Origin: a virus
Virus record (IMG/VR): IMGVR_UViG_3300032326_000853
Span: 9,456 to 73,455 of that record
Length of the DNA stretch: 64,000 nucleotides
Reading direction: 5' to 3' (one strand)
The notes below the pieces were generated by a model. It made no database searches. It was not told where the DNA came from and saw only the letters and a list, made by a program, of their open reading frames with translations. Positions 33,232 to 59,464 of the stretch are shown here, in pieces. How positions within the stretch are numbered: the stretch's first letter is position 1; each line of letters starts with the position of its first letter. The position numbers and the translations under genes were made by a program.

Positions 33232-34455
33232 ATGCGTTTACGTGAACTATTATCAGAAGTCAAAATTGACAACAAAGACGGGGCAGGTGCAGTTCCTTTT
33301 AATCAAGACATTGATTACTTTGGACTACGCACCACAATGCGTCCAAGTACATTCTTGCGATTGGCTGCTCCGCTGGGACAAGAACACAGCGCCAAGCTAG
33401 AAAAATACATTGCTGACGGTGGTGCAATTGGCGCCCCATTCTTAGACATTAAAATCCCCCAGGAATGGGACGACGGCGACTTTTCTAAGCCTGCACAAGT
33501 TGCGGGACATGAAGGTCGCAATCGCATGACTGCTATTAAAAAGCTAGAAGGCGATGCGCCTGTTGAAGTACATATTTTACCACGTGGCGGATATCGTGCT
33601 AGAGACATTACTCCAGAATTCAAAGCCGCCCTGGCCAAGAGCTTGTATGCAGAAAAAAGTACATCGTTAGTGACAGGCCCGCTATTTGAAGATGAACTAG
33701 AAGAAGGATGGAAAGACACTATGGCCAACTTGGCCATTGCTGGTGGCATTGCTGCCGGTGGTATAGGAGGCATGGCTGCAAAACAGGCGGCGCAAGATTA
33801 CTTTAAAGAGCCTACTGCGGCAGTAGCTCAGGCAACAACAAAAGCACCAGAAGTTCCAAAGACATTTGCACAAGCCAAATCTGCACCAAGTGCGCCTGCT
33901 GCCGTTAAAGCAGAGCCCAAACCTGAAGTACAGAAAAAACTCAATGTACAACCTATTACTGGCAATCCTTTGGAAGCTACGTTATTAAAAGTTGCCAAAT
34001 CTTCTGGCCTACAAGGTTCCGAACTTGCGGCATTTATGGCTCAATGTGCTCATGAAACCTTGGACTTTAAACGTCTGGTAGAATTTGGCGGTAGCTTAGA
34101 CTTCCGCAAATATGATCCAAAATATGCACCCAAGAAAGCCAAGGCCCTAGGCAACAAGCAAGTGGGAGATGGTGCCAAATACAAAGGTCGTGGCTTTATT
34201 CAAATCACTGGCCGTTACAATTACAAACGTGCAGGGGAAGCACTGGGCTTAGATTTAGTAAATCATCCAGAATTAGCCGAAGATCCAGCAACAGCAGCCA
34301 AGATTGCTGTTTGGTTTTGGAAGCATAGAGTGCAACCCAACGTAGACAACTTTAAAAATACCACTGATGTTACCAAGCAAATTAACCCCGGCATGCGAGG
34401 ATTAGAACAGCGCAAGGATAACTTTGCTGATTACATGCAAGTTGCCATGCGATAA
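33232..34455 (+). CDS. Glycoside hydrolase family 19 (chitinase/lysozyme-like) peptidoglycan hydrolase. It has a 250-aa N-terminal extension and an internal Ala/Gly-rich hydrophobic segment.
   Basis: GH19 motifs 'FMAQCAHETLDF', 'YKGRGFIQITGRYNY', 'AVWFWKHR'. N-terminal MRLRELL motif. Segment 'MANLAIAGGIAAGGIGGMAAKQAA'. Confidence 0.7.
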   Translation: MRLRELLSEVKIDNKDGAGAVPFNQDIDYFGLRTTMRPSTFLRLAAPLGQEHSAKLEKYIADGGAIGAPFLDIKIPQEWDDGDFSKPAQVAGHEGRNRMTAIKKLEGDAPVEVHILPRGGYRARDITPEFKAALAKSLYAEKSTSLVTGPLFEDELEEGWKDTMANLAIAGGIAAGGIGGMAAKQAAQDYFKEPTAAVAQATTKAPEVPKTFAQAKSAPSAPAAVKAEPKPEVQKKLNVQPITGNPLEATLLKVAKSSGLQGSELAAFMAQCAHETLDFKRLVEFGGSLDFRKYDPKYAPKKAKALGNKQVGDGAKYKGRGFIQITGRYNYKRAGEALGLDLVNHPELAEDPATAAKIAVWFWKHRVQPNVDNFKNTTDVTKQINPGMRGLEQRKDNFADYMQVAMR

Positions 34456-34547
34456 CGGTATATTTTGAACTAGCTCAAGTCTAGCCAAAAAACTAAATAT
34501 AATACACGGTTGTAGAAGACCCTACAACTACAATTAAAGGAAAAGAA

Positions 34548-34853
34548 ATGTTATCATTTTTAAAGAAGCTGTTTGGTTTTGGTAGCACACCAGCCTCAGA
34601 AGCACCATACAAGGTTGAAGTTACACAGCAAGGGGTTATTGCCGTAGGCGAGCCGCCAGCAACAGTAGCAATTCCAGTTGCAGGATTAATGTTGCCAGTT
34701 GAAGGTGCAGGCGCAGTTGAAGTTGTACCAGTTGCAGACGCTACAGTTCCAGTTGTTGCTGAAAAGAAGCCACGTGCCAAAAAGCCAGCCGCTGAAAAGA
34801 AACCAGCCGCTGAAAAGAAACCACGTGCCAAGAAAGCTCCCAAGGCTGAATAA
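34548..34853 (+). CDS. Small basic protein with histone-H1-like (KPAAEKK)n C-terminal repeats
   Basis: 'AEKKPRAKKPAAEKKPAAEKKPRAKKAPKAE'. AAAGGAAAAGAAATG RBS. Confidence 0.5.
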   Translation: MLSFLKKLFGFGSTPASEAPYKVEVTQQGVIAVGEPPATVAIPVAGLMLPVEGAGAVEVVPVADATVPVVAEKKPRAKKPAAEKKPAAEKKPRAKKAPKAE

Positions 34854-35668
34854 TGTTTTTGTCTGACATCACTCCACGTGTAACTGTATATGAATCCCTG
34901 CAACAGGTGAATGGCCGCTGGGCCCGCGTCAATACAGAAACAAATACCGTGGTAGAAATGTATCATGGAGCCAAGGATATTATTCTAGAGGGTGGCAATG
35001 TATTCAAAGATGCAGAAGGTAAGGAACTAACACAGCGTATCAATCAAGCTGATGTAGAACCAACTATTCGCTTCTTGGAAAAGATCACTGGTATCCCGCA
35101 TTTTGAACATGCACTAGGTACAACTGGCAAGACTCCCACAAGCGGAGACTTGGATATTGGTATTCCGCCTGGTATCACCAAAGAAGAATTGGTCAACAAA
35201 CTAAGTCAATGGTGCAGTCAACACGGTGAAGATTCCAAGGCCTTTATTAGAAAGTCTGGTATTAGCGTACACTTCAAAGCACCTATTGGTGGCAGTCCTG
35301 AGCGTGGTTATGTACAAACTGACTTTATGTTTGTGCCCAACTTAGACTTTGCAAAGTTTGCTATGGCAGCAGACCCACACAGTAAGTTCCGTGGCGCCCA
35401 TAAACAAATTTTGCTAAGTAGCATTGCTAAAGTAAAAGGCTATACTTGGAATCCAACAACCGGTCTCATTGATCGTGCCACTAAAAAATTAGTAGACAAT
35501 GGAGACAATCCAGATCATGTATCTGAATTGTTGTTTGGTCCAGGATTTGATCGTACTAGTCTGACCAGTGTTGAAGCTGTACTTAAAGCACTGGAAAATA
35601 ATCCCCAGCGTGAAGAGTTATTAGCCGATGCTAGAGAAACATTGGGCCGCGAAGGGGTTGAAATTTAA
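34853..35668 (+). CDS. Hypothetical protein, possible Pol-beta-superfamily nucleotidyltransferase fold
   Basis: 'LGTTGKTPTSGDLDIGI' resembles the hG[GS]x9-13DhDh signature. A possible third carboxylate lies in 'VQTDFMF'. Confidence 0.3.
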   Translation: MFLSDITPRVTVYESLQQVNGRWARVNTETNTVVEMYHGAKDIILEGGNVFKDAEGKELTQRINQADVEPTIRFLEKITGIPHFEHALGTTGKTPTSGDLDIGIPPGITKEELVNKLSQWCSQHGEDSKAFIRKSGISVHFKAPIGGSPERGYVQTDFMFVPNLDFAKFAMAADPHSKFRGAHKQILLSSIAKVKGYTWNPTTGLIDRATKKLVDNGDNPDHVSELLFGPGFDRTSLTSVEAVLKALENNPQREELLADARETLGREGVEI

Positions 35669-35669
35669 A

Positions 35670-37175: not shown

Positions 37176-37251
37176 CATTAAGTAGCACTTTTTTAATTTT
37201 TAAAGAACTTTTAAATACTAAAGTAGAGAATTTGGTCTCTACTTTAGTAAT

Positions 37252-37731
37252 ATGAAAAAGATAACTTTAGCCTTAGCAGTGGTATTAAGTGGAGCCCCGA
37301 ATGCCGCTGAATTACAACACAATTTCAATAGTCCAGCCTTTAGTGGTGTGGGCTATTCGTCACATGTTCTAACTTTAAAACAGTTAGAAGATCAACAAAA
37401 AGACAAAAACAGACAGGCAGCAGAAGCATTAAAAGCTGCCGCTGAACGTGAGGCCGCAAATACGCCGCAAGCACGTTTTAAAGCCAGTATGGAAACTCGC
37501 ATTTATAGTGAGTTAGCCAAACGCATTAGCGATAGTCTATTTGGTTCTAGTCCAAATGCACCAACATGTACTCCAACATCAAGTGGTGGCCCATGTGGCG
37601 ATATTGACATTGGCGGTCAAAATATTACTTGGAGAATCCAAGGTACAAATATCATTGTTAGAATTTCAGAAATTGCAAATCCTAACAACTATACAGAATT
37701 AGTAATGCCTTATGCGGCATTTAACATCTAA
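37252..37731 (+). CDS. csgF: CsgF-like curli assembly protein (secreted)
   Basis: Signal peptide MKKITLALAVVLSGAPNAA. 'ELQHNFNSPAFSGVGYSSHVLTLKQLEDQ' parallels E. coli CsgF '[28 protein letters not shown]'. Size 159 aa. Confidence 0.45.
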   Translation: MKKITLALAVVLSGAPNAAELQHNFNSPAFSGVGYSSHVLTLKQLEDQQKDKNRQAAEALKAAAEREAANTPQARFKASMETRIYSELAKRISDSLFGSSPNAPTCTPTSSGGPCGDIDIGGQNITWRIQGTNIIVRISEIANPNNYTELVMPYAAFNI

Positions 37732-37741
37732 GGAAATAAAC

Positions 37742-38623: not shown

Positions 38624-38770
38624 GTTTAAGAAAAACCGTGCATAGATCTTGCTTGTACAGTATGTAGGTCTTGGAAAAACTTACACTCTCTGGCAAGATC
38701 ATAGAGAGTTAATTAACGGGATAAATCCCAAGGAGCTAGGCAGAGAAGAATAATCTGTTTAGGTTTTAAA

Positions 38771-39568: not shown

Positions 39569-39573
39569 AATCA

Positions 39574-42617: not shown

Positions 42618-44612
42618 ATGAAATTACGTGACGTTAGCCCCCAAATAACCCTATTAGCTGAGCAACAGCTAGACGAAATTAACATGAGCCCGTCAAGCCT
42701 AAAGCAATTGGCTTCGAGAATCAATGCCCGTGCTGGTATGGAATTTGAAATGATTGTACCGGGCGTAAGTGAGGAAGATGGTGATTTAGAACCCAACTAC
42801 GGCGACGATCAACGCACACGTAGCTTTAGTGATATCGAAGACTTCTTTAACGATGGTGACTACAATAGCCGTAACGATGTTCAACGCTTGATCCAAAAAC
42901 TACAAGAAGCGTATTGGGAATGGGAAATGGAAAAGATCGATAACGATTGGAGCAATGACGGCGAAGATTACATTCGAGACTACATTAACAACAATGAGTG
43001 GAACCAAGACGACAAAATTCGCGAACACTTAGAAGCCATGGGCTTAGATGAAGATGCCATTGAAGCCGCAATTGAAGCTGGCAACAACGCACCAATTTAC
43101 ACAAAGTCTAGCGATCTTAAAGCCGCTCGTGAAGCAGACGAAAACTACAACAATTGGGTAGAAGCAGACCGTGCGGCTGATGATGAACTTGATGAATTAG
43201 TGTCAGAAACATGGAGCGAACAAAGCGGTGTTTATGAAGAAGCATTGGACCAGTATCGTGAAGAAAATGCAGGCACACACGATGAAGATGACTTCTTAGA
43301 AGACAATGGCCTACGTTACATGAGCGATATTTCAAATGAATATGACATCAGCTGGCCTTACTGGAGTAGTCCCGGTGGCGGTGAAGTCAATGCAGAAAGT
43401 GTTGCCGAAGACTTTGCCCAAGCAGTTGGTCGTACAGTAAAAGCCAGTGGCTCTTACCATTCGGGCAGTGTAGCTCGTCCTGACGCCAGTAACTCACACT
43501 ATGTTGTAGAACCTGACGGTAGCTTGGACCCGGACGACAGCAATGACGGTGGCTTAGAGTTTGTAAGCCCAGCATTGCCCATTGGCGAACTGCTAAGTGA
43601 CTTAGACAAAGTTGCCAAGTGGGCCGGCACGTATGGTTGCTACACTAATGAGTCAACTGGCTTGCACATCAACGTCAGCGTTGAAGGTTGGAGCGGTGAC
43701 ATGGGCAAGTTAGATTATGTCAAGTTGGCATTATTAATGGGTGACAACTATATCCTAGACAAGTTTGGTCGTGCTGGCAATACCTATTGCAAAAGTGCAA
43801 TGAACGAAATTAAAAATCGTGTAACACAACGTCCAGAAGATGCAGCCGCACTGCTAGAGAAAATGAAGTCTGGCCTAGACAGTCTTGCAAGTAAAGCAAT
43901 TCACTCGGGCGTTACCAACAAGTACACCAGTATCAATACCAAGAGTGGTTATATTGAATTCCGCTCACCTGGTGGCGACTGGTTAGGCGAGTATGCAGCC
44001 GATCCAGGATCAATTACCAATACCCTGTTGCGATTTGTTGTAGCATTAGATGCCGCAGTAGACGCAGAAAAATACAAACAAGAATACTTGAAAAAGTTGT
44101 ATGCAATCTTACAACCTAAAACTCACAACGACACTATGGCTTACTTTGCACAGTATGCCGCAGGTCAAATGCCCAAGGCCGCACTAAAGAGTTTTATTCG
44201 TCAGGCACAATTAGAGCGTCAAGGTAAGAAACCGCCGCCAGAACAAAAAGAACCAAATTGGTATATCTCAGACAAAAACACTGGACAAATAATTCAGAAG
44301 TACTATGCTGACAATGCCAGTGATGCTTATGAATACCTACAGCGTTGGAAGGCACAAAACGGCGGTGGTGATCACTTACAGTATGGTAAGATAATGCCGG
44401 GACAAGAACCTGGACAAACAGCCACGCAACGAACAGGTGGTAACGAGTGGACTGGACAATGGCTAATTAAAGACGGCAGTGGTCGAGTACTACATAGTTT
44501 TGGCGGTATAGGAAACAGCCAAAGCGATGCAAATCGTTTTGCAACTCGCTGGTTAGCACAACAAGGTTACAGTTATGGAACTGAAATTGAAGTAGTTCCA
44601 GAAATGAGATAA
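42618..44612 (+). CDS. Acidic N-terminal domain fused to an amidoligase-like domain (Amidoligase_2, GS-like fold; tentative)
   Basis: 'GGLEFVSPALPIGEL...GCYTNESTGLHINVSV' resembles the E-x-VSP and tGlHVHv signature blocks of phage amidoligases. N-terminus MKLRDV. Confidence 0.4.
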   Translation: MKLRDVSPQITLLAEQQLDEINMSPSSLKQLASRINARAGMEFEMIVPGVSEEDGDLEPNYGDDQRTRSFSDIEDFFNDGDYNSRNDVQRLIQKLQEAYWEWEMEKIDNDWSNDGEDYIRDYINNNEWNQDDKIREHLEAMGLDEDAIEAAIEAGNNAPIYTKSSDLKAAREADENYNNWVEADRAADDELDELVSETWSEQSGVYEEALDQYREENAGTHDEDDFLEDNGLRYMSDISNEYDISWPYWSSPGGGEVNAESVAEDFAQAVGRTVKASGSYHSGSVARPDASNSHYVVEPDGSLDPDDSNDGGLEFVSPALPIGELLSDLDKVAKWAGTYGCYTNESTGLHINVSVEGWSGDMGKLDYVKLALLMGDNYILDKFGRAGNTYCKSAMNEIKNRVTQRPEDAAALLEKMKSGLDSLASKAIHSGVTNKYTSINTKSGYIEFRSPGGDWLGEYAADPGSITNTLLRFVVALDAAVDAEKYKQEYLKKLYAILQPKTHNDTMAYFAQYAAGQMPKAALKSFIRQAQLERQGKKPPPEQKEPNWYISDKNTGQIIQKYYADNASDAYEYLQRWKAQNGGGDHLQYGKIMPGQEPGQTATQRTGGNEWTGQWLIKDGSGRVLHSFGGIGNSQSDANRFATRWLAQQGYSYGTEIEVVPEMR

Positions 44613-44613
44613 T

Positions 44614-45876
44614 ATGAAAATACAAGATTTAATTGAAGGTTGCAAACACGGAGAATACTATTGCTCCACAGACAAAAAGTGGAAGTGCCGTACTGGTCCT
44701 AAGCAAAGTAGAAAAGTATCCGAAGGTGACTTAAACGAATTTGCACCTGGTGCCGGCGATGGTGATGGCGACGAAGATCCATACCGATATCCCAAGCCAG
44801 AGTCGTATCGTCGTAGTATAGATTTCTTTGGAAAGTTTGAAGCTGATCATTTTGATCGAGAAGATATGAATGACGCCACTGGTGAATTCAAAGGCTATTG
44901 GGGCAAAACACAAATTGCCTATTTCAAGTTTGATAATCCAGCAAAGACTGGCAGTGATGATCCAGGCATGGGCTGGTACTATGAGCCCAACGACATCAGT
45001 GACGACGACAGTGACACTGGTGCAACACCTGCTGTTGATACATCTGCACAACGCAAGCAACAAGAATTAGGCATGATTGATGCGTTTTTAAAGTCAGGGA
45101 AAAAGCCTAATCCGGGCAGTCCAATACATGCCCTAATGAAGAAACATGGTCTGGCAGAAGGCAGTTTAGAAGAAATAGACCGTAGAGGATTCTTAAAAGG
45201 CCTTGGTGCGGCAGTGGCGGGTGCAGCCGGAGTCAGCAACGCCAAAGCGTCTGAAAAGAAGTTTTCAGACTTTATTACCGATCCTGCCGATAAAGAAAAA
45301 TATATAGAGTTAAGAAAAAAAGCCGATCGTATTTTGGCAATATCTATGGTAAATTCATCACTTAAAGTGGCCGCCTATGCCGAAATGGCCAAACTAAAGG
45401 ATTTTAAGAAAGAACTGGCCAAGAAATATAATATTGACATCAATCTTAAAGAAGAAGATATGGCGGAAGCACATCCTAACAGCAAAATCTACGACAAGTG
45501 CTGGGATGGTTATAAGAAAGTCCCGGGCAAAAAGCGTGGTGAAAAAGGCTCATGTGTAGAAGAAACTTATGATGGTGATGAGTTCTTTGAAGCCTACGGT
45601 GTATTATGGTTCAACGAAGATGAGCAGTTAGACGAAGCCGAATACCAAGGACGTAGTGTTCCACTAGGTAAGCCCATGCAAGGCGATGTTAAAAAGTTCA
45701 AAGTATATGTAAAAGATCCTTCAACTGGCAATGTTAAAAAAGTAAACTTTGGCGATCCAGACATGAAGATCAGAAAGTCTAACCCTGCGGCTCGTCGTAG
45801 CTTCCGTGCTAGACACAACTGTGACAACCCAGGTCCAAGAACCAAAGCACGTTACTGGTCCTGCCGTAAGTGGTGA
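44614..45876 (+). CDS. Hypothetical protein with 'LNEFAPGAGDGDGDED' motif and an internal twin-arginine-like signal (RRGFLKGLGAAVAGAAGVSNAKA)
   Basis: Internal Met 'MKKHGLAEGSLEEIDRRGFLKG...' would give a canonical Tat signal peptide. C-terminal Lys-rich region. Confidence 0.45.
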   Translation: MKIQDLIEGCKHGEYYCSTDKKWKCRTGPKQSRKVSEGDLNEFAPGAGDGDGDEDPYRYPKPESYRRSIDFFGKFEADHFDREDMNDATGEFKGYWGKTQIAYFKFDNPAKTGSDDPGMGWYYEPNDISDDDSDTGATPAVDTSAQRKQQELGMIDAFLKSGKKPNPGSPIHALMKKHGLAEGSLEEIDRRGFLKGLGAAVAGAAGVSNAKASEKKFSDFITDPADKEKYIELRKKADRILAISMVNSSLKVAAYAEMAKLKDFKKELAKKYNIDINLKEEDMAEAHPNSKIYDKCWDGYKKVPGKKRGEKGSCVEETYDGDEFFEAYGVLWFNEDEQLDEAEYQGRSVPLGKPMQGDVKKFKVYVKDPSTGNVKKVNFGDPDMKIRKSNPAARRSFRARHNCDNPGPRTKARYWSCRKW

Positions 45877-45895: not shown

Positions 45896-45929
45896 TTGAC
45901 ACAGCCGTTAAAATGTGTTAAATTATAGT
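45896..45929 (+). promoter_or_regulatory. Promoter TTGACA-17-TAAATT(ATAGT) abutting the cyclase start codon
   Basis: ttgaca at 45896-901. ATG at 45930 with no SD, which suggests a short-leader or leaderless transcript. Confidence 0.45.
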
Positions 45930-47966
45930 ATGAAAAACTTTATTCCCGGACCATGGAGTATTGCATGGGTGGCTGTTACAGCCGTTGTACTTGTTGCACT
46001 TAAAATCTCCAACCCCTCACCTGTTGAAAGCATTCAACTAAAAGGCTTTGATGCCTTGCTGGCCACTGACACACCTGTTGATTCCGATCGTGTTGTCATT
46101 GTTGACATTGGCGAGCCCTCCATTGAACGACTAGGGCAGTGGCCTTGGCCTCGCAAGGATCTTGCTCGTGCAATTGATCGTATTCAAGAACTAGGGGCAT
46201 CAGCTATTGTAGTTCCCGTTATCATGAGCGAAGCAGATCGCCTGGGTGGTGATCGAGACTTAGTCAATACACTGAATCATACCAACAGTGTTATTACACA
46301 AGCGCCTACTACACAAAACAAACGTCCCGATGCTGTTCGTCGTGGTGTTGCTGTAATTGGTGGCGACCCGCTTGAGTGGACATTTACTTGGCCCGGTGCG
46401 CTGAGTCCATACAAGCCCTTGGCTGATGCGGCCTCTGGTGTTGGTACCAGTGTAGTTGCTCCTGAGGTAGACGGTGTTGTTCGCCGCATGCCCTTGATTG
46501 TTGCAGTGGGAGATCAAATTTACCCCAGCTTGCCCATTGAAGCACTTCGTGTTGCTACGGGACAAAAGAGTTATCAAGTCAAAATGAGTTCAGCAGGTAT
46601 TGAAAAAGTTCGTATTGCTGGACAACCAGTTGTTACCACAGACGAACATGCTAGAATTTGGCTACGCTGGAACAAGAACTTTGCACGTTACGAGCTATCA
46701 GAGATATCAAAGAAAAAAGTAGACCTTAAGGGCAAAGTTGTAGTACTGGGTCTTGGTGTAGAAGGCTTGGGCAGTATCATTGCCACACCACAAGGCGAAC
46801 GTTGGGCACATGACATCCAAGCACAAACTGTACAAACATTATTAGACGGTGACAGCCCAGTACGTCCTGCATTCGCCCGTAGTGTCGAGCTATTAGCAAT
46901 TGTACTGATAGCGTTTGTACTAATTTTCGTTATGCCACGCTTGCCATTCTGGGCAGTGGGGGCGGCCCTATTTGTCACTGTAGGCGCTGTCATTGGTGGT
47001 AGCTTTTATGCATGGCAACAGTACAGTCAGTTATGGGACATTTACTTGTTGACCTTTGCGGCTGTGGTGTTATATGGACATGCATTGTTTGCCCGCTTTG
47101 TAATTGAATTCAAACAAAAGCAACAGATCAAGAAACAGTTTGGCACATACTTGAGCCCTGCATTGGTAGCCAAGCTACAAAAGAATCCAGAAATGTTACA
47201 GCTGGGCGGTGACGAACGTGAACTATCAATTATGTTTACAGACGTTCGTGGCTTTACTACTATTAGTGAACACTATGGTAAGGACGTACAAGGACTTACC
47301 AAGATCATGAATCGTTACATGACTGCAATGACCAAGAAGATCATTGACAATAACGGCACACTTGACAAGTATATTGGCGATGCACAAATGGCATTCTGGA
47401 ATGCTCCAGTTGACGAAGCACGTCACGCACATATGGCTGTCAAGACAGCACTTGAAATGATGGGAAGTTTAGATGCATTTAATGCGGAAATTACAGCAGA
47501 AGGCGTTCCTCCCTTTGGTATGGGCCTGGGAATTAATACTGCCGCCGTTGTGGTGGGCAATATGGGCAGTGATCAACGGTTTGACTATACTTGTCTTGGC
47601 GACGGTGTTAATTTGGCGAGCCGACTCGAGGGCCAGTCTAAGCCGTATGGTGTCAAGATTGTTTTAGGACAACGTACAGCAGAATTGGTTCGAGACGAAT
47701 ACTCTGTAGTAGAGTTAGACTGTATTGCAGTTAAGGGTAAAACACAAGGCGTTAAGATTTATACGCTAGGTGAAACCAATACAACATTGCATGACACGTA
47801 CTTGACTGCATACTATCGCGGCGACTGGACTAGAGCCATCAAACAGTGCGAAAAGCTAATTGCCTTGGACAATGAACTCAAAGCATATTATGAAGCTATG
47901 TTAGAGCGCATGAACGAAGGGTTACCTCCAAATTGGGATGGTACCTATCGTGCCACAAGTAAATGA
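45930..47966 (+). CDS. Class III adenylate/guanylate cyclase with N-terminal membrane-anchored CHASE2 sensor domain
   Basis: 'LSIMFTDVRGFTTISE', 'KYIGDAQMAFWNAP', 'GLGINTAAVVVGNMGSDQRFDYTCLGDGVNLASRLEG' are cyclase catalytic blocks. N-terminal TM, about 300-aa extracytoplasmic domain, then two TMs (CHASE2 layout). Confidence 0.8.
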   Translation: MKNFIPGPWSIAWVAVTAVVLVALKISNPSPVESIQLKGFDALLATDTPVDSDRVVIVDIGEPSIERLGQWPWPRKDLARAIDRIQELGASAIVVPVIMSEADRLGGDRDLVNTLNHTNSVITQAPTTQNKRPDAVRRGVAVIGGDPLEWTFTWPGALSPYKPLADAASGVGTSVVAPEVDGVVRRMPLIVAVGDQIYPSLPIEALRVATGQKSYQVKMSSAGIEKVRIAGQPVVTTDEHARIWLRWNKNFARYELSEISKKKVDLKGKVVVLGLGVEGLGSIIATPQGERWAHDIQAQTVQTLLDGDSPVRPAFARSVELLAIVLIAFVLIFVMPRLPFWAVGAALFVTVGAVIGGSFYAWQQYSQLWDIYLLTFAAVVLYGHALFARFVIEFKQKQQIKKQFGTYLSPALVAKLQKNPEMLQLGGDERELSIMFTDVRGFTTISEHYGKDVQGLTKIMNRYMTAMTKKIIDNNGTLDKYIGDAQMAFWNAPVDEARHAHMAVKTALEMMGSLDAFNAEITAEGVPPFGMGLGINTAAVVVGNMGSDQRFDYTCLGDGVNLASRLEGQSKPYGVKIVLGQRTAELVRDEYSVVELDCIAVKGKTQGVKIYTLGETNTTLHDTYLTAYYRGDWTRAIKQCEKLIALDNELKAYYEAMLERMNEGLPPNWDGTYRATSK

Positions 47967-50600: not shown

Positions 50601-50782
50601 TTTGGATTATTATTCTTTTTTTGTTCGGCCAGCATGCGAAACCATTCTTTTTTCATTTCCACATTGTGGCGAAGATGTGTCAAGCGGTCATCCCCGTCAT
50701 CTTTGATGTAAACGTACATCAGTACAGCAAATACAGCTATACACAATACAACATACAAATTAATTGTTAATGTGTATTCCAT
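50570..50782 (-). CDS. Small membrane protein
   Basis: TM 'LYVVLCIAVFAVLMYVYI'. Confidence 0.35.
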   Translation of the reverse strand: MEYTLTINLYVVLCIAVFAVLMYVYIKDDGDDRLTHLRHNVEMKKEWFRMLAEQKKNNNPKWPAGWPGKN

Positions 50783-51063: not shown

Positions 51064-51176
51064 CTTGGCAATCCTTTAAGTTATAGTGCTATTTATTAGA
51101 ATGACCAGAAAAGTGGTCCTATTATACTAGCGGTAAATAGAGTGAAGGTTAATGTGCAAAAACAATAAATATATCT

Positions 51177-52241: not shown

Positions 52242-52250
52242 GGGATAAAA

Positions 52251-55200
52251 ATGATTCGCATTAGACTAATCAACGAAGGTAAAGTTGTCAAGCAAATTAC
52301 CAGCCGCATACACGAAGGTGTTGTACTTGAACAAATTAAAAATTACAAGGATCCGTACGACACTATTCAAGTTGTCGAAGGTGAATTGTCAGAGGATGCC
52401 AAGAGCATGTTACAGCATGTTGCTCGTAAAATTGTACCAGCAGCCATGGCAGCAGGTGTTGCACTAAGTGGTGCAGGCAATGCTCAAGCACAAGGTAGTG
52501 CCAATCCCAACTACCCAGGTCTAAATCACTCAGTTGGTCAGCACATGGTTGACATTTTCAGTCCTAATTACAAAGAGATGATGCGTCAACGCGAACATCG
52601 TCGTAATACAGAACGTCAAGTTTGGAATGCTGAACAAGATGAAATTCGCAAGCAACGTGTGGCTGATGCTCGTGCTAGAGTAAGACCAGCACCGGGGCAA
52701 CAGCATGTGGTTTATGATCAAAGTCGTATCAGTCAAGACGGTAAGTCTTACATCATCTACGGCATGGACAACAAGGTTCGTCGTATTCCAGTAAACGGTA
52801 CAGAATATATGCCAGGTGATAGTCAACGCTTACCGCACTATATTACCAGTGGGGGCGGTGTATTTTATGTACGCCACCCACACATGAACGAAAGCATTAG
52901 AGAGTCCGCAGAGAACAAAGCCGAGCATGATAAAGGTTATAGTGATGCTAGCCAAGGTAAATCAAAGAACCCTTACAATCCTGGTAGTCCAGCGGCAGCC
53001 GCTTACGATGCGGGTCAACAAGCATACAGGCGTCACTTTTCAGAAGCACATCAGATTCCAGGCAAAGACGAACACTATGCATTGCGTAATAACATCTGGA
53101 CCTTGTATGACGGTGATGAAATAGTACATGAATACAGACCCGAGCGTGGCGAAGTTGTTGGTGCTAAAAAGTTATTGGCTCGATTCGACGATGAAGGTTA
53201 TGATGTTACTCACGTTGTAAGCCCAATGGGTGTTGCCACTTACTTGTACGGCAAACCAGAAGAAGACATGGACGAAGGCTACACAGTCACACGTGGCATT
53301 GATCGAGAGCGTTATCAAGAGCGCCCAGGTTTAGAAGGCCCATTCTCTACTCGCAGTGGTAAGGTTGTGTATTACGATCCAAAAGAAGGCAAGTATTACG
53401 ATCCCGAAACTGACTTTTACATTGGCCACGAAGACTATGCCAAAATGGACGAAGAAGCGACACCAGGTGTAGTCAAAGCAGCCGCTGGTTTAACCCTGGG
53501 TGGAATAGCAGCCGCAGGTGCTCCGGCTCTTATTGGCATATTAGGCCCAGTAGTTGGTATCCCATTTGCCGCATACGCCGCTTATAGTGCCGCCAAATTG
53601 GGCATGAAGGGTGTAGAAAAGCTATGGGACATGGCCTCTGAAAAGTTGGGTGGCGATGATAAAGTTGCACAATACGCCAACGCTAAGTTAGCTAAATTAC
53701 CGCCTGATCAGGCCAGGGCAGCCGCGGCAGTAGTTAAACAAATTGGTGAGAGCAAGCAAAGTGTAGCCGAAGGCGATCCAAATGCCACTGTGGGCACTAT
53801 TTCAAGTACAGGTACCAGTGGTGGTACAGGTCGTACACAGTTTGCACCAACAGGCAAAACAACCAACGCCAAGTTCAACAAGAACGGTCAAATTGAATTA
53901 GACACCGAACAAGAAGATGATGGTTCTGTGAACTTAGATGCTGATGCTGTTAAGCAACTACAACAAGCCGGCGTTAAAATTAAAGAAAGCGAAGACAGTC
54001 CAGTGGCCAGTGCCATTGCTCGTCGTATCATGAGCCAACGTTTAGATTTGCTACAAAATCACGGACCACAAAAAGTTATGGCTGCAATTGATGATGTTGC
54101 TGACTTTGTTGGTGACACCGAAGAAATTGGTTCTAGTGATGTAAGTGCTTGGGTAAAACAAGTTGAACAAACATTAGCTGGCATGGGCGAGTCTGTAAAC
54201 GAAGGTACTGATACCCTGGAAGGTATTCTAAGCAAGTTCAGCGCAGACTATGCCAAGTTCAAAGCAGGTGGTGACATTGATGAGAACCAAGACTTCTTTG
54301 ATGCCTTATATGAGTACTTCTTTGACGAAATGCCATATGGTGTTAAGAAAGCCCGCGATGGCGATCCTTACGAGTGGATTACTGATCGTTTAGATCAAGA
54401 GTCAGGCATTGCGCCAGTTGCAGAAGCTGAAGAAGATGAAGCTACTCCTGGTGATCAAGCTGCCGCAGATCAAAACATTATCATGCAAATTCGTAAAGCA
54501 AGTGACTATGAAAAGCCAACTAAGATTAAACTAGCAGATGGCAGTGAAAATGTTATTGCTCCAAACATTGCCAAGTTAATCCTTGCCAAGTTTGACAAAA
54601 TGAAACCAGAAAGCAAGGCCCTGCTACAAGATACACTAAACACTGAAGAAGGCTTCAAAGAAATTTTGGCTTATTTTGGTGGTGGTGTACGTGAACAAGC
54701 AGTTGCTCGTGCAAGTAAAGTCATGGCACACGCATTAGAAGAAGCTGGCTTAGCTGATATACGAGCAAGAATGGATGCAAGACGCGACCATCCCGAAAAG
54801 CAGTCCCCTAATCCAACTACTCCAATGCCTCCAGTGCCTCCATATGTTGCACCAGCAAAGCAACAGGAACTAAAGGCCGGAGACATCATTGGTTACAGAC
54901 CCAAGAATGCTAAAATGGTACCAATCAAGGCCAAGGTATTAAAGTTGCTAAGTGGCGACAGAGCCATGGTCAGTGTATCAAGCCCAACTATGATTGCTCG
55001 CAACAATGATAGCCCTGTTATTACCATTGGCCCATTGAGCGATCTTGATATTCAAAATCCATACAAAGCAATAGCGAGAGAGTCTGTTGTAAATGAAGCC
55101 GCTGCGGATTGGTTGCCAGCATATAATGGATTATTAAAAGGTGACGGCGAGCCAGCAAGGGGTGGGAGCAGCCAAAATCTTAATTGGAAAAAATCAATGG

Positions 55201-56429
55201 CCTTAGTTGCCAAAGATACTGGCATCACTGACTGGAACCAGTTGATGAATTTTGTACAACAGTATGCCTCAAATAGCCATAATAAAGCCAGCAGAGAGAA
55301 TTTGGAGAGATGGCAACAGCTTACTAATGAAATTGCTTCATTAATGAAGCAGGCTCCTACCATGGATGAAATGCGAGCCGCAATAAAGCAACAAGATGCT
55401 GACAAACATCAACAGAACTTGACTGCTATTCAACAGCAGTTAGATTTAGAAAATGCTCCGCTACAACACGAAATGTCTGTGCAGGCCCTAATAAACAAGG
55501 CTGAATTAGATAAAGCTGACCAGAAGGAGTTGTTAGAACTTGACATGGAAGCACGCCTGGCCATTATGAAAATCAAGCAGGACATGGAACTTGATGCCAA
55601 GGAACGCTTGACTCAAATTGAACGCGAAATTGAAGATCGTAAAGAACGTGAAGATGTTCGCAAGCATGAGTTGGAAATGGCACAAGCTGGCTACAAGCAT
55701 GAGCTTGCTGTTATCAATGCCTCAGCTGAAGGTGAATATAAGAAAGCTAAACTAGAAGCTGATTATCAAATTCAAATCAAACAGCTAGACAACATTGACA
55801 ATGCAGGCGAGCGTCAAAACAGACTAGATCAAATCAACACTGAAAAAGCAAAACAACTTGAAATCATTGATGCTGAAACAAAAGCTCGAGTTGAAGTAAT
55901 GCAAAAAGAAGTTGATGTTGAAAAACAACAAAGTGACATCAAGATCAACCAAGCATTCATGATGACGTTAAACCCAATTTGGGGTGCGGCATTGACTGCG
56001 GCACATGCGGCAGGTTCTACATGGAAAGCAGGTATTAACAATTTAAATAAGGCGTTAGCAATGCTATCGAAACCAGTTATGCCAACAGCACAGAAAGAAA
56101 GTCGTTATGATCGACGCGATGCTTATCAACGTGATTATGATTCAAGTGTAGCAGGTATGGGCAAGCGTCAAAGTCTAGCTTATCAACTTGACGGTGGTGC
56201 CAATGACGAAGGTTGGGATCAACCTGAACGTTCGTATCAAGTACCACAACAAACATACTATATTCGCTTCAAGGATTCTGGCAAGGTATACAAACAAAAA
56301 GGTGTACCCAAGAGCTTTGCCAACAAAGCAGCCGCGAATGCCTATGCGCTGGCCATGATCAAGAATAATCCTGCACATCAGGACAACATATTGTTGACAG
56401 TGTCCAGTGAAGACAAACCCTCAGCATAA
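52251..56429 (+). CDS. Giant (1392-aa) protein with several features. It has an N-terminal signal-like Ala/Gly segment and a central multi-pass hydrophobic block. It has a long C-terminal coiled coil. It is a candidate virion ejection or tape-measure-like protein.
   Basis: 'RKIVPAAMAAGVALSGAGNAQAQG', 'AAAGLTLGGIAAAGAPALIGILGPVVGIPFAAYAAYSAA', then a Glu/Lys/Gln-rich heptad region (aa 1050-1250). Confidence 0.45.
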   Translation: MIRIRLINEGKVVKQITSRIHEGVVLEQIKNYKDPYDTIQVVEGELSEDAKSMLQHVARKIVPAAMAAGVALSGAGNAQAQGSANPNYPGLNHSVGQHMVDIFSPNYKEMMRQREHRRNTERQVWNAEQDEIRKQRVADARARVRPAPGQQHVVYDQSRISQDGKSYIIYGMDNKVRRIPVNGTEYMPGDSQRLPHYITSGGGVFYVRHPHMNESIRESAENKAEHDKGYSDASQGKSKNPYNPGSPAAAAYDAGQQAYRRHFSEAHQIPGKDEHYALRNNIWTLYDGDEIVHEYRPERGEVVGAKKLLARFDDEGYDVTHVVSPMGVATYLYGKPEEDMDEGYTVTRGIDRERYQERPGLEGPFSTRSGKVVYYDPKEGKYYDPETDFYIGHEDYAKMDEEATPGVVKAAAGLTLGGIAAAGAPALIGILGPVVGIPFAAYAAYSAAKLGMKGVEKLWDMASEKLGGDDKVAQYANAKLAKLPPDQARAAAAVVKQIGESKQSVAEGDPNATVGTISSTGTSGGTGRTQFAPTGKTTNAKFNKNGQIELDTEQEDDGSVNLDADAVKQLQQAGVKIKESEDSPVASAIARRIMSQRLDLLQNHGPQKVMAAIDDVADFVGDTEEIGSSDVSAWVKQVEQTLAGMGESVNEGTDTLEGILSKFSADYAKFKAGGDIDENQDFFDALYEYFFDEMPYGVKKARDGDPYEWITDRLDQESGIAPVAEAEEDEATPGDQAAADQNIIMQIRKASDYEKPTKIKLADGSENVIAPNIAKLILAKFDKMKPESKALLQDTLNTEEGFKEILAYFGGGVREQAVARASKVMAHALEEAGLADIRARMDARRDHPEKQSPNPTTPMPPVPPYVAPAKQQELKAGDIIGYRPKNAKMVPIKAKVLKLLSGDRAMVSVSSPTMIARNNDSPVITIGPLSDLDIQNPYKAIARESVVNEAAADWLPAYNGLLKGDGEPARGGSSQNLNWKKSMALVAKDTGITDWNQLMNFVQQYASNSHNKASRENLERWQQLTNEIASLMKQAPTMDEMRAAIKQQDADKHQQNLTAIQQQLDLENAPLQHEMSVQALINKAELDKADQKELLELDMEARLAIMKIKQDMELDAKERLTQIEREIEDRKEREDVRKHELEMAQAGYKHELAVINASAEGEYKKAKLEADYQIQIKQLDNIDNAGERQNRLDQINTEKAKQLEIIDAETKARVEVMQKEVDVEKQQSDIKINQAFMMTLNPIWGAALTAAHAAGSTWKAGINNLNKALAMLSKPVMPTAQKESRYDRRDAYQRDYDSSVAGMGKRQSLAYQLDGGANDEGWDQPERSYQVPQQTYYIRFKDSGKVYKQKGVPKSFANKAAANAYALAMIKNNPAHQDNILLTVSSEDKPSA

Positions 56430-56447
56430 CATATAATATGCAATAAG

Positions 56448-56475
56448 AATTGCCGCGTAATGCGGCAATTTCTTT
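56448..56475 (+). terminator. Terminator hairpin AATTGCCGC-GTAAT-GCGGCAATT followed by TCTTT
   Basis: 9-bp perfect stem after the stop of the giant gene. Confidence 0.6.
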
Positions 56476-56500
56476 GACTACAGCTTGTATAAGTACACGC

Positions 56501-57991
56501 ATGGATGTAATACTTTTAAACAGTGGGCCCGAAGATCTTGGTCGAATTTCGCCTTATAGAACCTTGGGCGCATATAAAATTGCACACTACACAAGGTCTG
56601 CAGGCTACAATACTCAGGTAATAGATCATTTGATGTTCTTATCCGAGGACCAGCTGCGTGCCTGTTTGCTAAAATTTGTTACTAATGAAACCTTGGTAAT
56701 TGGCGTTAGCACAACTTTCATGAGAGACCCTTCCCGTCCCTTTAATGAACCCTCGCTGCCTGCACATGTTATTACTGTATTAAACGAAATCACTGATCAA
56801 TTTCCCAATATCAAATTGGTTTTTGGCGGTTACGGTACGTATTTGGTCACAAGTACAAGAAGCACTGACTTTATAAAGAATCCATATGCTGTTGTTCAGG
56901 AGTACGGCGAAGATACTTTTGTTGATATCCTGAATCATTTAAGCGGCACAGGTGATGAGCCTCCTTGGGTCATTGCCAAAGTAACACCCGGTGGTCCTTA
57001 TAAAAAGATGATCAAGCAATACACAGGTCCTGTTGCTGTGAGATTTAATATTGAAACTGATGCATTTCAATTTACTGCACAAGATGCAGTTATGCCCAAC
57101 GAAACTTTACCAATTGAAATCAGCAGAGGTTGTATCTTTAAATGCAAATTTTGCAACCATTTATTGTTGGGACGAGGCAAACTTGACTACCTAAGAGATT
57201 TTGAATTGGTGCGCAACGAATTGATCAACAATTACGAACGCTGGGGCACTACCAATTACTATGTCATATGTGACACATTCAATGACACAGAATATAAAAT
57301 GAAAGAATGGCACAAAATGGTCACAGCATTGCCATTCAAGATAAATTGGACTTCGTATTTGCGAGCTGACTTATTGAATAGATTTGAAGACGTACCTTAT
57401 ATGCTGGCCGAGACTGGGTTATTTTCATGCTTTCACGGCATTGAAAGTTTCGGCGAAAAAGCATCTGTTACAATTGGCAAAGGCTGGAGTGGCAAAAGCG
57501 CCCGAGAATTCCTACCAAAATTGTATCACGACATTTGGAAAAAAGAAGTATTTCAGACCTTGAGTTTTATTGTGGGCTTGCCAGGGGACACGGCCGAAAG
57601 CATACTTGACACTGGTAGATGGTTCAACAGTAATAAAATGTACAACATTGCTTGGCATACCCTGGGTATCATGCCCAACAGTCCTAGACATGCCAGCGAA
57701 TTTGAGCGCAACGCTGAAAGCTATGGCTACACATTTACTGAAAACAATAAATGGAAAAATGAACACTGGACCATGGACACGGCTGCAGAGTTTGTTAAGA
57801 CAAAATTAGGCCCGTTAAACGGTCCCAATAATGCCAAGCACGGCAGCTGGAAAATCATGCAGTTGAAGCAATTTGGGTACACACGATCTAATTTTCAAAA
57901 GGAAAACAACATATTTTGGAACATAGCCGACCAATATCAGCGGGGACAAGTGTTTATTGATCAATACGTGACTAAATTACTTGCACTTTAA
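56501..57991 (+). CDS. B12-binding-domain radical SAM enzyme (paralog of 9886..11472)
   Basis: 'GCIFKCKFCNH' CxxxCxxC. Collinear similarity with 9886..11472 throughout, e.g. 'YYVICDTFND' vs 'YWLLDDTFND' and 'SFIVGLPGDT' vs 'QFIIGLPYET'. Confidence 0.7.
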   Translation: MDVILLNSGPEDLGRISPYRTLGAYKIAHYTRSAGYNTQVIDHLMFLSEDQLRACLLKFVTNETLVIGVSTTFMRDPSRPFNEPSLPAHVITVLNEITDQFPNIKLVFGGYGTYLVTSTRSTDFIKNPYAVVQEYGEDTFVDILNHLSGTGDEPPWVIAKVTPGGPYKKMIKQYTGPVAVRFNIETDAFQFTAQDAVMPNETLPIEISRGCIFKCKFCNHLLLGRGKLDYLRDFELVRNELINNYERWGTTNYYVICDTFNDTEYKMKEWHKMVTALPFKINWTSYLRADLLNRFEDVPYMLAETGLFSCFHGIESFGEKASVTIGKGWSGKSAREFLPKLYHDIWKKEVFQTLSFIVGLPGDTAESILDTGRWFNSNKMYNIAWHTLGIMPNSPRHASEFERNAESYGYTFTENNKWKNEHWTMDTAAEFVKTKLGPLNGPNNAKHGSWKIMQLKQFGYTRSNFQKENNIFWNIADQYQRGQVFIDQYVTKLLAL

Positions 57992-58018
57992 TAAATACAT
58001 TCGATAAGGATTCATAAT

Positions 58019-59464
58019 ATGAAATTTACAGACCTAGGGGACAAGGGCCCAAATATTAAACTGGCTTTTGTTAAAGAAGCCAAGTTAAATGAATTTGCAC
58101 CTGGTGGCGGGGATGACCGCGAGCCCAATGAAGAAGAAATCTTGCGTCAATTGGCCGCACAATGGTGGAATGGCACAGAACAACAAATGGCCAAAGCACA
58201 ACGTACATTAGAAACAATGGGTTGGGAAATTGGACAAGATGAATCCGGTGATGACGATGCAGGTGTATTCTTAATACGCCCAGGTGATGTAAATGGTGAC
58301 ACATACATTGCATTTAACCACAGTGATTTAGATTTAAACGAAGGCTGGAAAGATAAGTTGGCAGCGGCTGCGTTAGCTGGAACAATGGCCCTAGGTGCCG
58401 CAGGCGCACAAGCCAGAGTTTCACCTGGTGACGATCCCAGTATCAATCGTTTAAATGGCAAACCTGTTGCTACACAAGTTGCGCCGGCTGCATCACAGGC
58501 TGTGCAACCTGGTGCTTCATTACCAGGTAAAAATCTACAAGCAGTTGATAACATAGAAGGAAACAAGGCCAATGGTTATACCATCACACAAGATGGCAAT
58601 TCCTATGATGTTAAGGTAGTGCCAAAAGGTTCTCCTACTCCCAGGGGCGGCAAAATGATGAAGGTAACTCAAGCACAAGTTGGCGAGCGCGGCATTGGAA
58701 ATTATGTAGTATATTTGCTAAACAATGGGACTGCATATCTTTATATGGGCGAAAGCGTAAATGAAGCTTCACCGCGAGTTGATTCGCTTGTAACCGACGC
58801 ACTAAAAATAATGCAGGGTTCAAGTGTAAATGATGCTGTGGCCGCACTAAAGACTGTGCTGGGCAATAGAGAATACAACAGCCGTCGTGGACATTATAAT
58901 TTCTATGTCAAGCAATTGGTTGATATGTCAGGACAGCAAGGCATGGCGGAAGCACGTGACGGCGAGGACTTTGAGCCAGCATTGTCGGGCTTGAAAAAAG
59001 AGTTTGACAAGTTCGCAAACAGTGATCGCGCAAATCGAGATGTCGCTGACAGTGACATTGACGATGAGGATGTTGCTAACGACATGGGTCAAGACAGCGG
59101 CGATGACTTAGATGAAGCAACATTGGCACAAATGCGTGACTACTTTAATCAACCAGACGACTCGATGAAAGTAAACCGTGCGCCAGGCGCACCGGGAAAG
59201 CCTGCCGCAGGTATCCCACACGAAATACAAGCCTTGGTCAACAAGATGTATCATTCAGGAAAAGTTACACCGCAAGAGTTTGAAATTTTAAGAAAGTTTC
59301 AACAGAAAACAAAAATCAATGTGGGCATTAAAGAAGCTGATAAAAATCCCTATGCCATAGGTATGGCACAGGCCATGAAAAGCACAGGCGATAAACCGCC
59401 ATTAAAGAAAAGCACTATCAACAAGGCGCATGAAATCGCCCGTGCTGTTAAAAAAGGTGAATAA
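58019..59464 (+). CDS. Hypothetical protein with 'KLNEFAPGGGDD' motif and internal Ala/Gly-rich signal-like segment
   Basis: 'KLAAAALAGTMALGAAGAQARVSPGDD'. Acidic C-terminal region. Confidence 0.5.
   Translation: MKFTDLGDKGPNIKLAFVKEAKLNEFAPGGGDDREPNEEEILRQLAAQWWNGTEQQMAKAQRTLETMGWEIGQDESGDDDAGVFLIRPGDVNGDTYIAFNHSDLDLNEGWKDKLAAAALAGTMALGAAGAQARVSPGDDPSINRLNGKPVATQVAPAASQAVQPGASLPGKNLQAVDNIEGNKANGYTITQDGNSYDVKVVPKGSPTPRGGKMMKVTQAQVGERGIGNYVVYLLNNGTAYLYMGESVNEASPRVDSLVTDALKIMQGSSVNDAVAALKTVLGNREYNSRRGHYNFYVKQLVDMSGQQGMAEARDGEDFEPALSGLKKEFDKFANSDRANRDVADSDIDDEDVANDMGQDSGDDLDEATLAQMRDYFNQPDDSMKVNRAPGAPGKPAAGIPHEIQALVNKMYHSGKVTPQEFEILRKFQQKTKINVGIKEADKNPYAIGMAQAMKSTGDKPPLKKSTINKAHEIARAVKKGE

Follow-up and report, generated by a model that had tools for sequence, protein, structure and literature searches.

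A 64,000-nucleotide stretch of viral DNA (IMG/VR record IMGVR_UViG_3300032326_000853, positions 9,456 to 73,455; the whole stretch is called the window here) encodes large mosaic proteins, four of which carry an Ala/Gly-rich, signal-like segment in the interior of the chain. The four are named by the starts of their open reading frames (ORFs): 33232, 44614, 52251 and 58019. As read from the sequences, the precursors are built in the order of a leader resembling the capsid-targeting sequence of T4, one or more prodomain cassettes, an aliphatic-x-Glu junction, and a cassette that opens with the signal-like segment and continues into its cargo. We tentatively propose, giving it not quite an even chance, that the segments are export or membrane signals held inactive inside head-packaged polyproteins and unmasked by a prohead protease. 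A preliminary description of the window had suggested a modular order of prodomain, cryptic signal or signal-anchor-release (SAR)-like segment and effector, with an LxE site in front, and this order is strongly supported by the comparative data.

The four segments named in that description are present letter for letter, its residue numbers being off by 0-3. They are MANLAIAGGIAAGGIGGMAAKQAA in ORF 33232-34455 (residues 164-187, nucleotides 33721-33792; earlier given as 165-188), RRGFLKGLGAAVAGAAGVSNAKA in ORF 44614-45876 (residues 190-212, nucleotides 45181-45249; earlier 187-210), RKIVPAAMAAGVALSGAGNAQAQG in ORF 52251-56429 (residues 59-82; earlier 57-80) and KLAAAALAGTMALGAAGAQA in ORF 58019-59464 (residues 113-132; earlier 113-134). 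A comparable uncharged hydrophobic run arose in 0.5-4.5% of residue shuffles (2000 trials per protein), the 44614 segment, with an uncharged run of 13 residues, falling short of the run criterion of this test. The segments exceed chance expectation. Their character is retained across divergent homologs, and hundreds of metagenomic phage proteins carry them. From their sequences they can be assigned to a Sec-like type (GWK, Ala/Gly-rich core and AxA), a Tat (twin-arginine translocation)-like type ((D/I)xxRRGFLKG, core and AxA) and a SAR- or anchor-like type (GWK and a Gly/Ala core without AxA, ahead of GH19, a glycoside hydrolase family 19 domain).

Glu junctions and leaders

IMG/VR and two protein collections were scanned for relatives of the window proteins, yielding hundreds of matches, and comparison with these relatives reveals freely recombining cassette mosaics. 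A blind scan for internal Ala/Gly-rich hydrophobic runs proved noisy, returning enzyme cores, true membrane proteins and spurious frames, and enriched [LIVMA]xE only modestly (20/60 vs 17%, p=0.0015). Motif-anchored logos were used instead, with cassette starts defined from downstream residues alone. In these logos, Glu occupies P1 in 67/67 distinct contexts ahead of the AHPNSK mini-cassette, in 140/155 contexts ahead of W(K/R) plus core, where P3 is aliphatic in 140/155 likewise, and in 65/79 ahead of FAPG modules. Overall, ~85-90% of contexts have Leu, Val, Ile or Met at P3, two residues ahead of the Glu. The AHPNSK and FAPG cassettes contain no hydrophobic segment and have the same Glu junction, which is therefore a general feature of the polyproteins and not of the signals. 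The aliphatic-x-Glu pattern looks like that cleaved by T4 gp21-type enzymes; the head proteases of T4, phiKZ, 201phi2-1 and SPN3US all cleave after Glu (PMC5694885).

W(K/R)-plus-core segments lie within 10 residues of the annotated start in 5/201 instances, all of which keep xxE (Glu after any two residues) before GWK and several of which resemble truncated gene calls. Segments that occupy the true N-terminus and lack this junction number 0/201. Even minimal proteins keep an acidic leader of 8-27 residues, as in MRINEIIIESELDE↓GWKEK.., MRAHEILTEEQLNE↓LDWRK.. and MKIFEITE↓ (arrows mark putative cleavage positions), of the type MRxxEF/I..E. The leader consensus, M-(K/R)-x-x-E-(L/F/I)-(L/I)-x-E, closely resembles T4 MKTYQEFIAE. 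Such a leader is present on 5/42 window ORFs, all five of them mosaic proteins (including MRLRELLSE, MKLRELIMME, MKIQDLIE and MKLRD..), and on 278/486 retrieved relatives.

The prodomains had been described as carrying MK[LI]REL or LNEFAPG motifs. The likeness to the first is approximate, the actual starts being MRLRELLSE (33232), MKIQDLIE (44614), MKFTDLGDK (58019) and MIRIRLINEG (52251); genuine MKLREL or MKLRD starts are found next door, in mosaic proteins 51177 and 42618. LNEFAPG does occur in 44614 (residues 40-46) and 58019 (residues 23-29), but 52251 carries neither motif. Both are loose as marks of a prodomain, and LNEFAPG, instead of marking one, is the start of another cassette.

The GH19 protein 33232

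The assignment of 33232 as a GH19 lysin agrees with a match to Pfam PF00182 (E=1.9e-16) and with Foldseek matches to GH19 endolysins. Its parts are as follows.

33232..33258, + strand: leader MRLRELLSE, T4 capsid-targeting-like, ending L-S-E; E9 at least 90% conserved (alignment A1)
33259..33696, + strand: prodomain, residues 10-155, confident globular fold; AlphaFold2 predicted local distance difference test (pLDDT) 80-94
33697..33705, + strand: L-E-E junction (P3-P1), putative Glu-specific protease site
33706..33792, + strand: GWKD plus Ala/Gly-rich segment, residues 159-187, SAR-/signal-anchor-like, without AxA; W160 at least 90% conserved, pLDDT ~30-38
33793..33948, + strand: low-complexity Ala/Pro/Lys/Gln linker; pLDDT <50
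33949..34452, + strand: GH19 muramidase/chitinase-fold cargo domain; PF00182, phrog_181 endolysin, Foldseek

The GH19 cassette has the layout GW(K/R)xx, Ala/Gly-rich core, low-complexity linker and GH19. In an alignment of 43 divergent proteins that contain it, E158 is invariant, and the remaining invariant columns all fall in the C-terminal half, which holds the GH19 domain. What stands upstream of the cassette varies among relatives, from the 33232 prodomain to other enzymes, a 418-residue multidomain part or a 1350-residue polyprotein; the prodomain is exchanged for unrelated domains, or missing, in homologs. In the shortest proteins a leader of 11-20 residues alone precedes the cassette, e.g., MRAQEFIIEEQLDE↓GWREQLANLAMAGTIAATGTGALMAKQA and MRLHEITDLEE↓GWKSTLAGIGTSAALALSPSQ. 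In one relative (L161) a Tat-like segment replaces the GW type, giving RTNE↓DLDRRGFLKGLGGAAVAAAGLSA plus GH19. In composition, missing AxA and GH19 cargo the 33232 segment resembles a SAR domain, but as translated it stands internally or, in relatives, behind an acidic leader, away from the N-terminus expected of a SAR domain.

Pfam gave zero matches for the 33232 prodomain, for the acidic modules A and B described below and for the cargo domains. That the prodomain is ParB/Srx-like is a guess from its GHEGRNR motif alone. By tblastn, it has a standalone 165-residue homolog, RsoM2USA_385, in the Ralstonia jumbo phage RsoM2USA, which starts MQTFKQFLSE and adjoins gp21-like and gp23-like genes. 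Leaders are similar also in the T4-like pelagimyophages HTVC008M and Melnitz, which have cassettes in common with the window proteins.

A further link between leader, junction and head genes is provided by locus L212 (IMGVR_UViG_3300037471_000945), which has gp20-, gp21- and gp23-like genes. At 13381-14454, 3.4 kb past the capsid gene, it encodes a protein with a T4-capsid-targeting-like leader, an LDE junction and a hydrophobic segment, MKLQELIQLSEEQLDE↓GMWRNLIAAATFMLGSSHLMA, with an SLT lytic transglycosylase behind them. To judge by its sequence, this protein is of the same design as 33232, with another muralytic enzyme as cargo.

The window encodes a second GH19 enzyme of 215 residues (59477-60124), in which leader, junction and hydrophobic segment are all absent. 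This enzyme is probably the endolysin proper, acting in lysis, and the GH19 domain of 33232 therefore likely serves a separate, virion-associated function.

The twin-arginine-like segment of 44614

44614..44739, + strand: leader MKIQDLIE.. and first segment, up to L-N-E42
44740..45162, + strand: module B cassette, FAPG..DPYRYPKPE..GMGWYYEP..MKKHGLAEG; on many IMG/VR contigs with varied neighbours
45166..45174, + strand: L-E-E junction ahead of the Tat-like segment
45175..45249, + strand: twin-arginine signal-like segment IDRRGFLKGLGAAVAGAAGVSNAKA, residues 188-212
45250..45468, + strand: cargo of the Tat-led cassette, residues 213-285, ending M-A-E

The segment of 44614 had been called a textbook Tat signal, and curated models bear out the call: it scores 21.2 bits against NCBIfam TIGR01409 (cut-off 16.7) and, with 22.4 against 22.7, just under the cut-off of Pfam TAT_signal PF10518. 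IDRRGFLKGLGAAVAGAAGVSNAKA contains the S/T-R-R-x-F-L-K consensus, a moderately hydrophobic core and an AxA c-region; it departs from a Tat signal in position, starting at residue 188 of 420 as translated, and would become N-terminal only through the predicted cleavage. Internal placement is the rule for this type: each of the 8 distinct Tat-like contexts in 1.9 Mb of related DNA lies 159-1112 residues past the first Met. A Glu stands 2-3 residues ahead of the RR pair in 8/8 of these contexts vs 18% of 630 other RR sites (p ~1e-6, the contexts not being fully independent). The TIGR01409 cut-off is passed by 44614 and by four other cassettes, all internal, and Tat-like segments recur in at least 5 different cassettes. 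In L062 the Tat cassette is a clean insertion relative to L067, placed between two Glu-ended junctions. For the cargo of the Tat-led cassette, the sole close homolog found (P0388) likewise stands behind GVAE↓DLSRRGFLKG.

Behind this cargo lies the mini-cassette AH(P/G)NSKxYDKCWxGYKKVPGKKRGExGSC (window 45469-45570, residues 286-319 of 44614), which is very widespread and often constitutes an entire small protein behind an 8-residue leader (MKIFEITE↓AHGNSK..). Module B (44740-45162), like module A of 58019 (58094-58342), is highly conserved and acidic, with an FAPG start and L(N/D)E on either side; the two occur in hundreds of mosaic proteins, on contigs of up to 360 kb.

Sec-like segments in 52251 and 58019

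52251..52394, + strand: N-terminal 48 residues of the giant protein, ending L-S-E48; conserved in five homologs
52395..52490, + strand: Sec-type signal-like segment DAKSMLQHVARKIVPAAMAAGVALSGAGNAQA, residues 49-80; n-h-AxA grammar, no ribosome-binding site (RBS)
53478..53594, + strand: Gly-zipper-like double hydrophobic hairpin cassette of 52251, residues 410-448 (39 residues); unnoticed in the preliminary description
58019..58093, + strand: leader MKFTDLGDK.. up to L-N-E25; pLDDT <50 for residues 1-33
58094..58342, + strand: module A, acidic domain, FAPGGGDDREP..WWNGTEQQ..GWEIGQDESGDDD..DLDLNE; pLDDT 77-95
58343..58414, + strand: Sec-type signal-like segment GWKDKLAAAALAGTMALGAAGAQA, residues 109-132
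58415..58765, + strand: cargo, RVxPGxxDPxINRLxGKPxATQ stretch plus beta-rich domain, ending V-N-E249; pLDDT 87-95 for residues 171-245

By inspection, both segments display the elements of a Sec signal, with a basic n-region, a core and small residues at -1 and -3: GWKDK-LAAAALAGTMALGAAG-AQA↓R in 58019 and ..HVARK-IVPAAMAAGVALSGAG-NAQA↓Q in 52251. Neither is N-terminal, the starts being at residues 109 and 49, respectively. The same grammar was recognized by inspection in L026, L050, L099, L116, L165 and P02xx proteins. In the types represented by 58019, 52251 and 44614, the core is followed by AxA.

The signal unit of 58019 reads xxE↓GWKxK, core, A(Q/H/N/S)A↓RVxPGxxDPxINRLTGKP... In an exhaustive search, this GWK-signal unit turned up in 191 cluster representatives, at positions 2-1323 of proteins of 101-1648 residues, with 60-78% identity and ahead of unrelated cargo in >100 clusters. 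Among homologs of 58019 with 63-85% overall identity the h-region is identical; the sequences behind module A differ from phage to phage. The hairpin cassette of 52251 is kept in several homologs and cleanly missing in L181 and L182, with Glu-ended boundaries.

The stretch RVxPG(D/Q)xDPxINRL(T/N)GKP(I/V)(A/T)TQ (window 58415-58486, residues 133-156 of 58019), directly behind the putative signal-peptidase site, is retained ahead of unrelated cargo in >100 cluster representatives and matches no family.

The internal cores are less hydrophobic than the N-terminal signals of the same phage (1.67 vs 2.51, p=0.001; mean best 11-residue Kyte-Doolittle value, with the CsgF, CsgG, curlin-like and lipoprotein genes as comparison set). 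They consist of ~50% Ala plus Gly, and the ordinary exported proteins of the phage use Leu-rich N-terminal signals. Tat substrates, SAR proteins and proteins exported after translation typically have weak cores, and the Ala/Gly-rich cores fit post-translational or Tat/SAR-type use. Such cores would suit proteins that are kept soluble until release.

Internal starts and burial

Two competing explanations named in the preliminary description are that the segments are buried core helices or that internal start codons with an RBS make them the N-termini of separate genes. AlphaFold2 models of 33232 and 58019, built with homolog alignments, place the segments between confident domains in regions of pLDDT <50. 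In 33232, residues 9-155 and 240-407 are confident and the joining residues 156-233 have pLDDT <50; 58019 resembles beads on a string, with pLDDT 32-47 over residues 113-170. Burial was rejected on account of this low pLDDT over the segments. Internal starts were rejected also, the RBS being absent and the Met codons unconserved. No Shine-Dalgarno-like sequence lies at a useful distance before the in-frame codons M164 (33232), M175 (44614) and M53 (52251), and 58019 has neither a Met nor another plausible start upstream of its segment. Close homologs have Leu, Ile or Thr in place of Met164, and one homolog (L056) has Ile in place of Met53; Met175 is part of module B, which also occurs without a Tat segment behind it.

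Proposed mechanism and alternatives

In T4, a capsid-targeting sequence brings internal proteins into the prohead, where the gp21 protease removes it, and the mature proteins are ejected into the host (PMC9026906). We infer cleavage, packaging, ejection and export of the window proteins along similar lines. The acidic upstream parts would hold the precursor in the cytoplasm, and the leader would carry it into the prohead. There, a Glu-specific protease of the T4 gp21 type would cleave the junctions, so that the signal would become the new N-terminus of a mature fragment kept in the head. The fragments would be expelled with the DNA, unfolded, into the next host, where the exposed signal may steer the cargo to the inner membrane or periplasm, via Sec for the AxA type, via Tat for the RR type and as a releasable anchor for the muramidase. 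Green fluorescent protein packaged in T4 refolds after ejection (PMC9026906); ejected proteins therefore arrive unfolded, a state that suits Sec. On the sequence evidence, cleavage, ejection and export are plausible. A more far-reaching version, which we regard as doubtful, is that a large clade of uncultured aquatic phages stores ready-made Sec/Tat substrates in the capsid, the head protease having removed their acidic upstream parts, and that the Sec and Tat systems of the new host export the effectors to the periplasm or envelope within seconds, before phage gene expression.

Several observations weigh against unmasking by a prohead protease. Prohead protease, capsid and portal genes were found neither in the window nor in 186 window-related loci nor, on sister contigs, in the 10 kb that follow the end of the window, the genomes searched for a head protease being incomplete. 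A phmmer search with T4 gp19-24 against all loci gave matches in RsoM2USA (L001) only, the 80 jumbo-phage loci that a capsid-based scan found to hold gp20/21/23 sets include no window-like contig, and a search for encoding contigs gave an 18-kb contig only. Among these 80 major capsid protein loci, the combination of leader, xxE, hydrophobic segment and muralytic protein occurs in one (L212/L215) and in none of the other 79. The link to a gp21-type enzyme draws on the resemblance of leader and motif and on other phage clades. Of the proteins themselves, 52251 has a variant in place of the canonical leader, the GH19-type segment lacks an AxA signal-peptidase site, and many GWK-type cassettes have Arg at +1 past AxA, which is not ideal for Sec export. 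Finally, the proposal offers no rationale for delivering periplasmic proteins by way of the cytoplasm.

The most serious competitor, which we nonetheless consider unlikely, retains processing and packaging but dispenses with Sec and Tat: the hydrophobic N-termini would insert directly in the inner membrane from the periplasmic side or the tail tip, helping to form or anchor a DNA-entry conduit and placing the muramidase by the peptidoglycan. SPN3US gp47 has speculatively been read in this way, and podovirus ejection proteins form a trans-envelope channel, one of them with a transglycosylase domain. That protein is gp16 in T7. The presence of two muralytic cargoes, GH19 in 33232 and SLT in L212, is consistent with such insertion, as are the Gly-zipper-like GxxxG runs in the cores, the hydrophobic hairpin conserved in 52251 and the missing signal-peptidase site of the GH19 type. 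Direct insertion leaves unaccounted for, however, both the twin-arginine consensus, with which five cassettes pass a curated Tat model, and the regular AxA behind the core, and the cargoes are diverse small domains, unlike channel proteins.

The remaining alternatives fit the junction and leader data poorly. Without any phage protease, the segments might act as internal signals or signal-anchors in the producing cell, the upstream domains staying cytoplasmic and the cargo being translocated, with AxA types freed by signal peptidase I, for late roles in lysis, envelope remodelling or superinfection exclusion. The window phage is rich in envelope functions (CsgF/CsgG, lipoproteins, secreted proteins), a GH19 domain requires periplasmic access, and internal Tat-dependent segments are known in some bacterial membrane proteins, among them actinobacterial Rieske proteins. 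We nevertheless find this improbable, as it gives no role to the near-invariant Glu and aliphatic P3 or to the obligatory acidic leader of minimal proteins. Acidic residues on the cytoplasmic side contradict the positive-inside rule, the Glu junction also at cassettes without a hydrophobic segment points to a general processing site, and the ordinary exported proteins of this phage carry normal N-terminal Leu-rich signals. Lower still we rank the view that the segments are functionless today, either as flexible linkers rich in Ala and Gly or as fossils of signal peptides brought in by gene fusion. They do sit in low-confidence, linker-like regions of the models, and the proteins are mosaics built from captured small genes, which other phages carry separately; yet physicochemical character is kept despite sequence divergence in distant homologs, and the RR consensus and AxA are retained across independent cassettes. 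The GWK-signal unit, moreover, is conserved before unrelated cargo in >100 clusters, which is the opposite of decay. It is barely credible that each segment is the usual N-terminal signal of a gene of its own, started internally, with the long ORFs as annotation artefacts: an in-frame Met lies shortly upstream in 3/4 proteins, but an RBS is absent from all of these, 58019 has no start, M164 and M53 are substituted in homologs, M175 lies in a module also found without the Tat segment, and the frames are open in hundreds of homologs.

Relation to known systems

Unmasking of head-packaged signals by a prohead protease joins pieces that are known individually: capsid targeting and processing as in T4, polyvalent head-packaged proteins, SAR-like domains and Sec/Tat signals. 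SAR endolysins such as P1 Lyz and phage 21 R have a weakly hydrophobic, Gly/Ala-rich membrane segment, without a signal-peptidase site, upstream of the muralytic domain. In these lysis enzymes, which are produced late, the SAR domain has a basic n-region and forms the actual N-terminus; in 33232, by contrast, the segment lies 163 residues inside the protein, or behind an acidic leader in relatives. The podovirus ejection proteins (T7 gp14/15/16, P22 gp7/16/20 and those of N4) are, like the predicted window products, internal virion proteins that are expelled into the envelope and are membrane-active. They are essential channel builders that are not known to have a protease-unmasked signal or Sec/Tat grammar, whereas the window proteins are shuffled accessory cassettes.

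The T4 internal proteins (IPI-III, Alt) have a leader of 10-19 residues (MKTYQEFIAE) with an aliphatic-x-Glu end, and the window leaders follow the same pattern. Their cargo is variable in an arms-race-like manner, kept in the head and ejected (PMC9026906). They are single, small, soluble cytoplasmic effectors, in contrast to the window polyproteins of up to 1392 residues with many Glu junctions, some predicted mature fragments of which start with export signals. The polyvalent proteins of Iyer et al. (2017) are multidomain, head-packaged, injected effectors that include ParB-like-lysozyme fusions and for which proteolytic domain release was proposed (PMC5512222). The mosaic proteins of the window share this multi-cassette effector architecture. 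Processing of polyvalent proteins is assigned to an embedded zincin peptidase, in place of which the window proteins have Glu junctions between cassettes, and signal peptides, transmembrane segments and the periplasm are mentioned 0 times each in that paper (PMC5512222).

The nearest parallel is SPN3US gp47, which is processed by the prohead protease gp245 at ALE-111, the mature fragment opening with a predicted transmembrane helix. The protein is associated with the head, and ejection and contact with the host membrane were inferred for it (PMC5694885). Compared by description, its architecture, in which a propeptide ending in xxE is followed by a membrane segment, is like that of the mosaic proteins. 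It is a single protein with Ala rather than Leu, Val or Ile at P3, for which no Sec/Tat grammar or muralytic cargo is reported, and its cleavage was established by mass spectrometry, in contrast to the predicted cleavage of the window proteins. By analogy, gp47 may serve as a partial precedent. Apart from the remark on its transmembrane helix, literature searches on ejected or internal head proteins gave no direct account of export signals, and Sec/Tat grammar and cassette portability on such proteins appear to be undescribed so far.

Genomic context

The window is phage-like DNA of 41-46% GC with nearly every gene on the + strand. When 13 kb were compared by Megablast with 50,697 phage records, no match was returned, and tblastn of the window proteins gave domain-level matches only. 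Six large, acidic, consecutive-looking mosaic proteins start at 33232, 42618, 44614, 51177, 52251 and 58019. They carry several unrelated effector-type domains per polypeptide, arranged in the AlphaFold2 model of 58019 as beads on a string, and the small genes captured in them occur as standalone genes in other phages. The two that stand beside the main four are:

42618..44612, + strand: mosaic neighbour, MKLRD.. leader plus amidoligase domain; same polyprotein class, without a signal-like segment
51177..52241, + strand: mosaic neighbour, MKLRELIMME.. leader; homologs fused to module B in other phages (L056, L061)

Elsewhere, the window encodes tail-fibre-like proteins, a subtilase S8 protease (PF00082; 5808-7328), the amidoligase_2 domain within mosaic protein 42618-44612 and two radical-SAM-like proteins (56450-57991 and 61483-62943). 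A curli-like (type VIII secretion) set of genes carried by the phage occupies 37252-42590 and comprises a CsgF-like protein (PF10614), a CsgG-like lipoprotein (PF03783, E=8.5e-53), a secreted curlin-repeat-like protein, a FecR-domain protein and a 637-residue secreted protein that combines an F5/8 type C domain with curlin-like repeats at its C-terminus. A CHASE2-sensor adenylate/guanylate cyclase with three hydrophobic segments (45915-47966) is ~41% identical to homologs of pelagimyophage HTVC008M and Methylophilales phage Melnitz.

Implications

If signals are indeed unmasked in the head, the T4 paradigm of capsid targeting and prohead proteolysis would widen from a few soluble proteins to a large repertoire of shuffling cassettes, and the host envelope would become a new destination for head-packaged effectors. 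Storage of Sec/Tat substrates in the capsid, if true, would offer a route to immediate envelope take-over or superinfection exclusion by effectors that include a muramidase and small domains. The precursors would additionally represent a natural case of a signal peptide masked by upstream sequence and activated by proteolysis, a design usable for conditional export. The features described here would also supply simple sequence rules with which to annotate the 'hypothetical' mosaic proteins that aquatic viromes contain by the thousand, and to predict their mature products, namely a leader M(K/R)xxE(F/L/I).., a junction (L/V/I/M)-x-E and cassette starts GWK.., xxRRGFLKG.., FAPG.. and AHPNSK... 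Even without use of Sec or Tat, the cassettes flag candidate membrane-active ejection proteins of myovirus-like jumbo phages, whose entry through the inner membrane is poorly understood.

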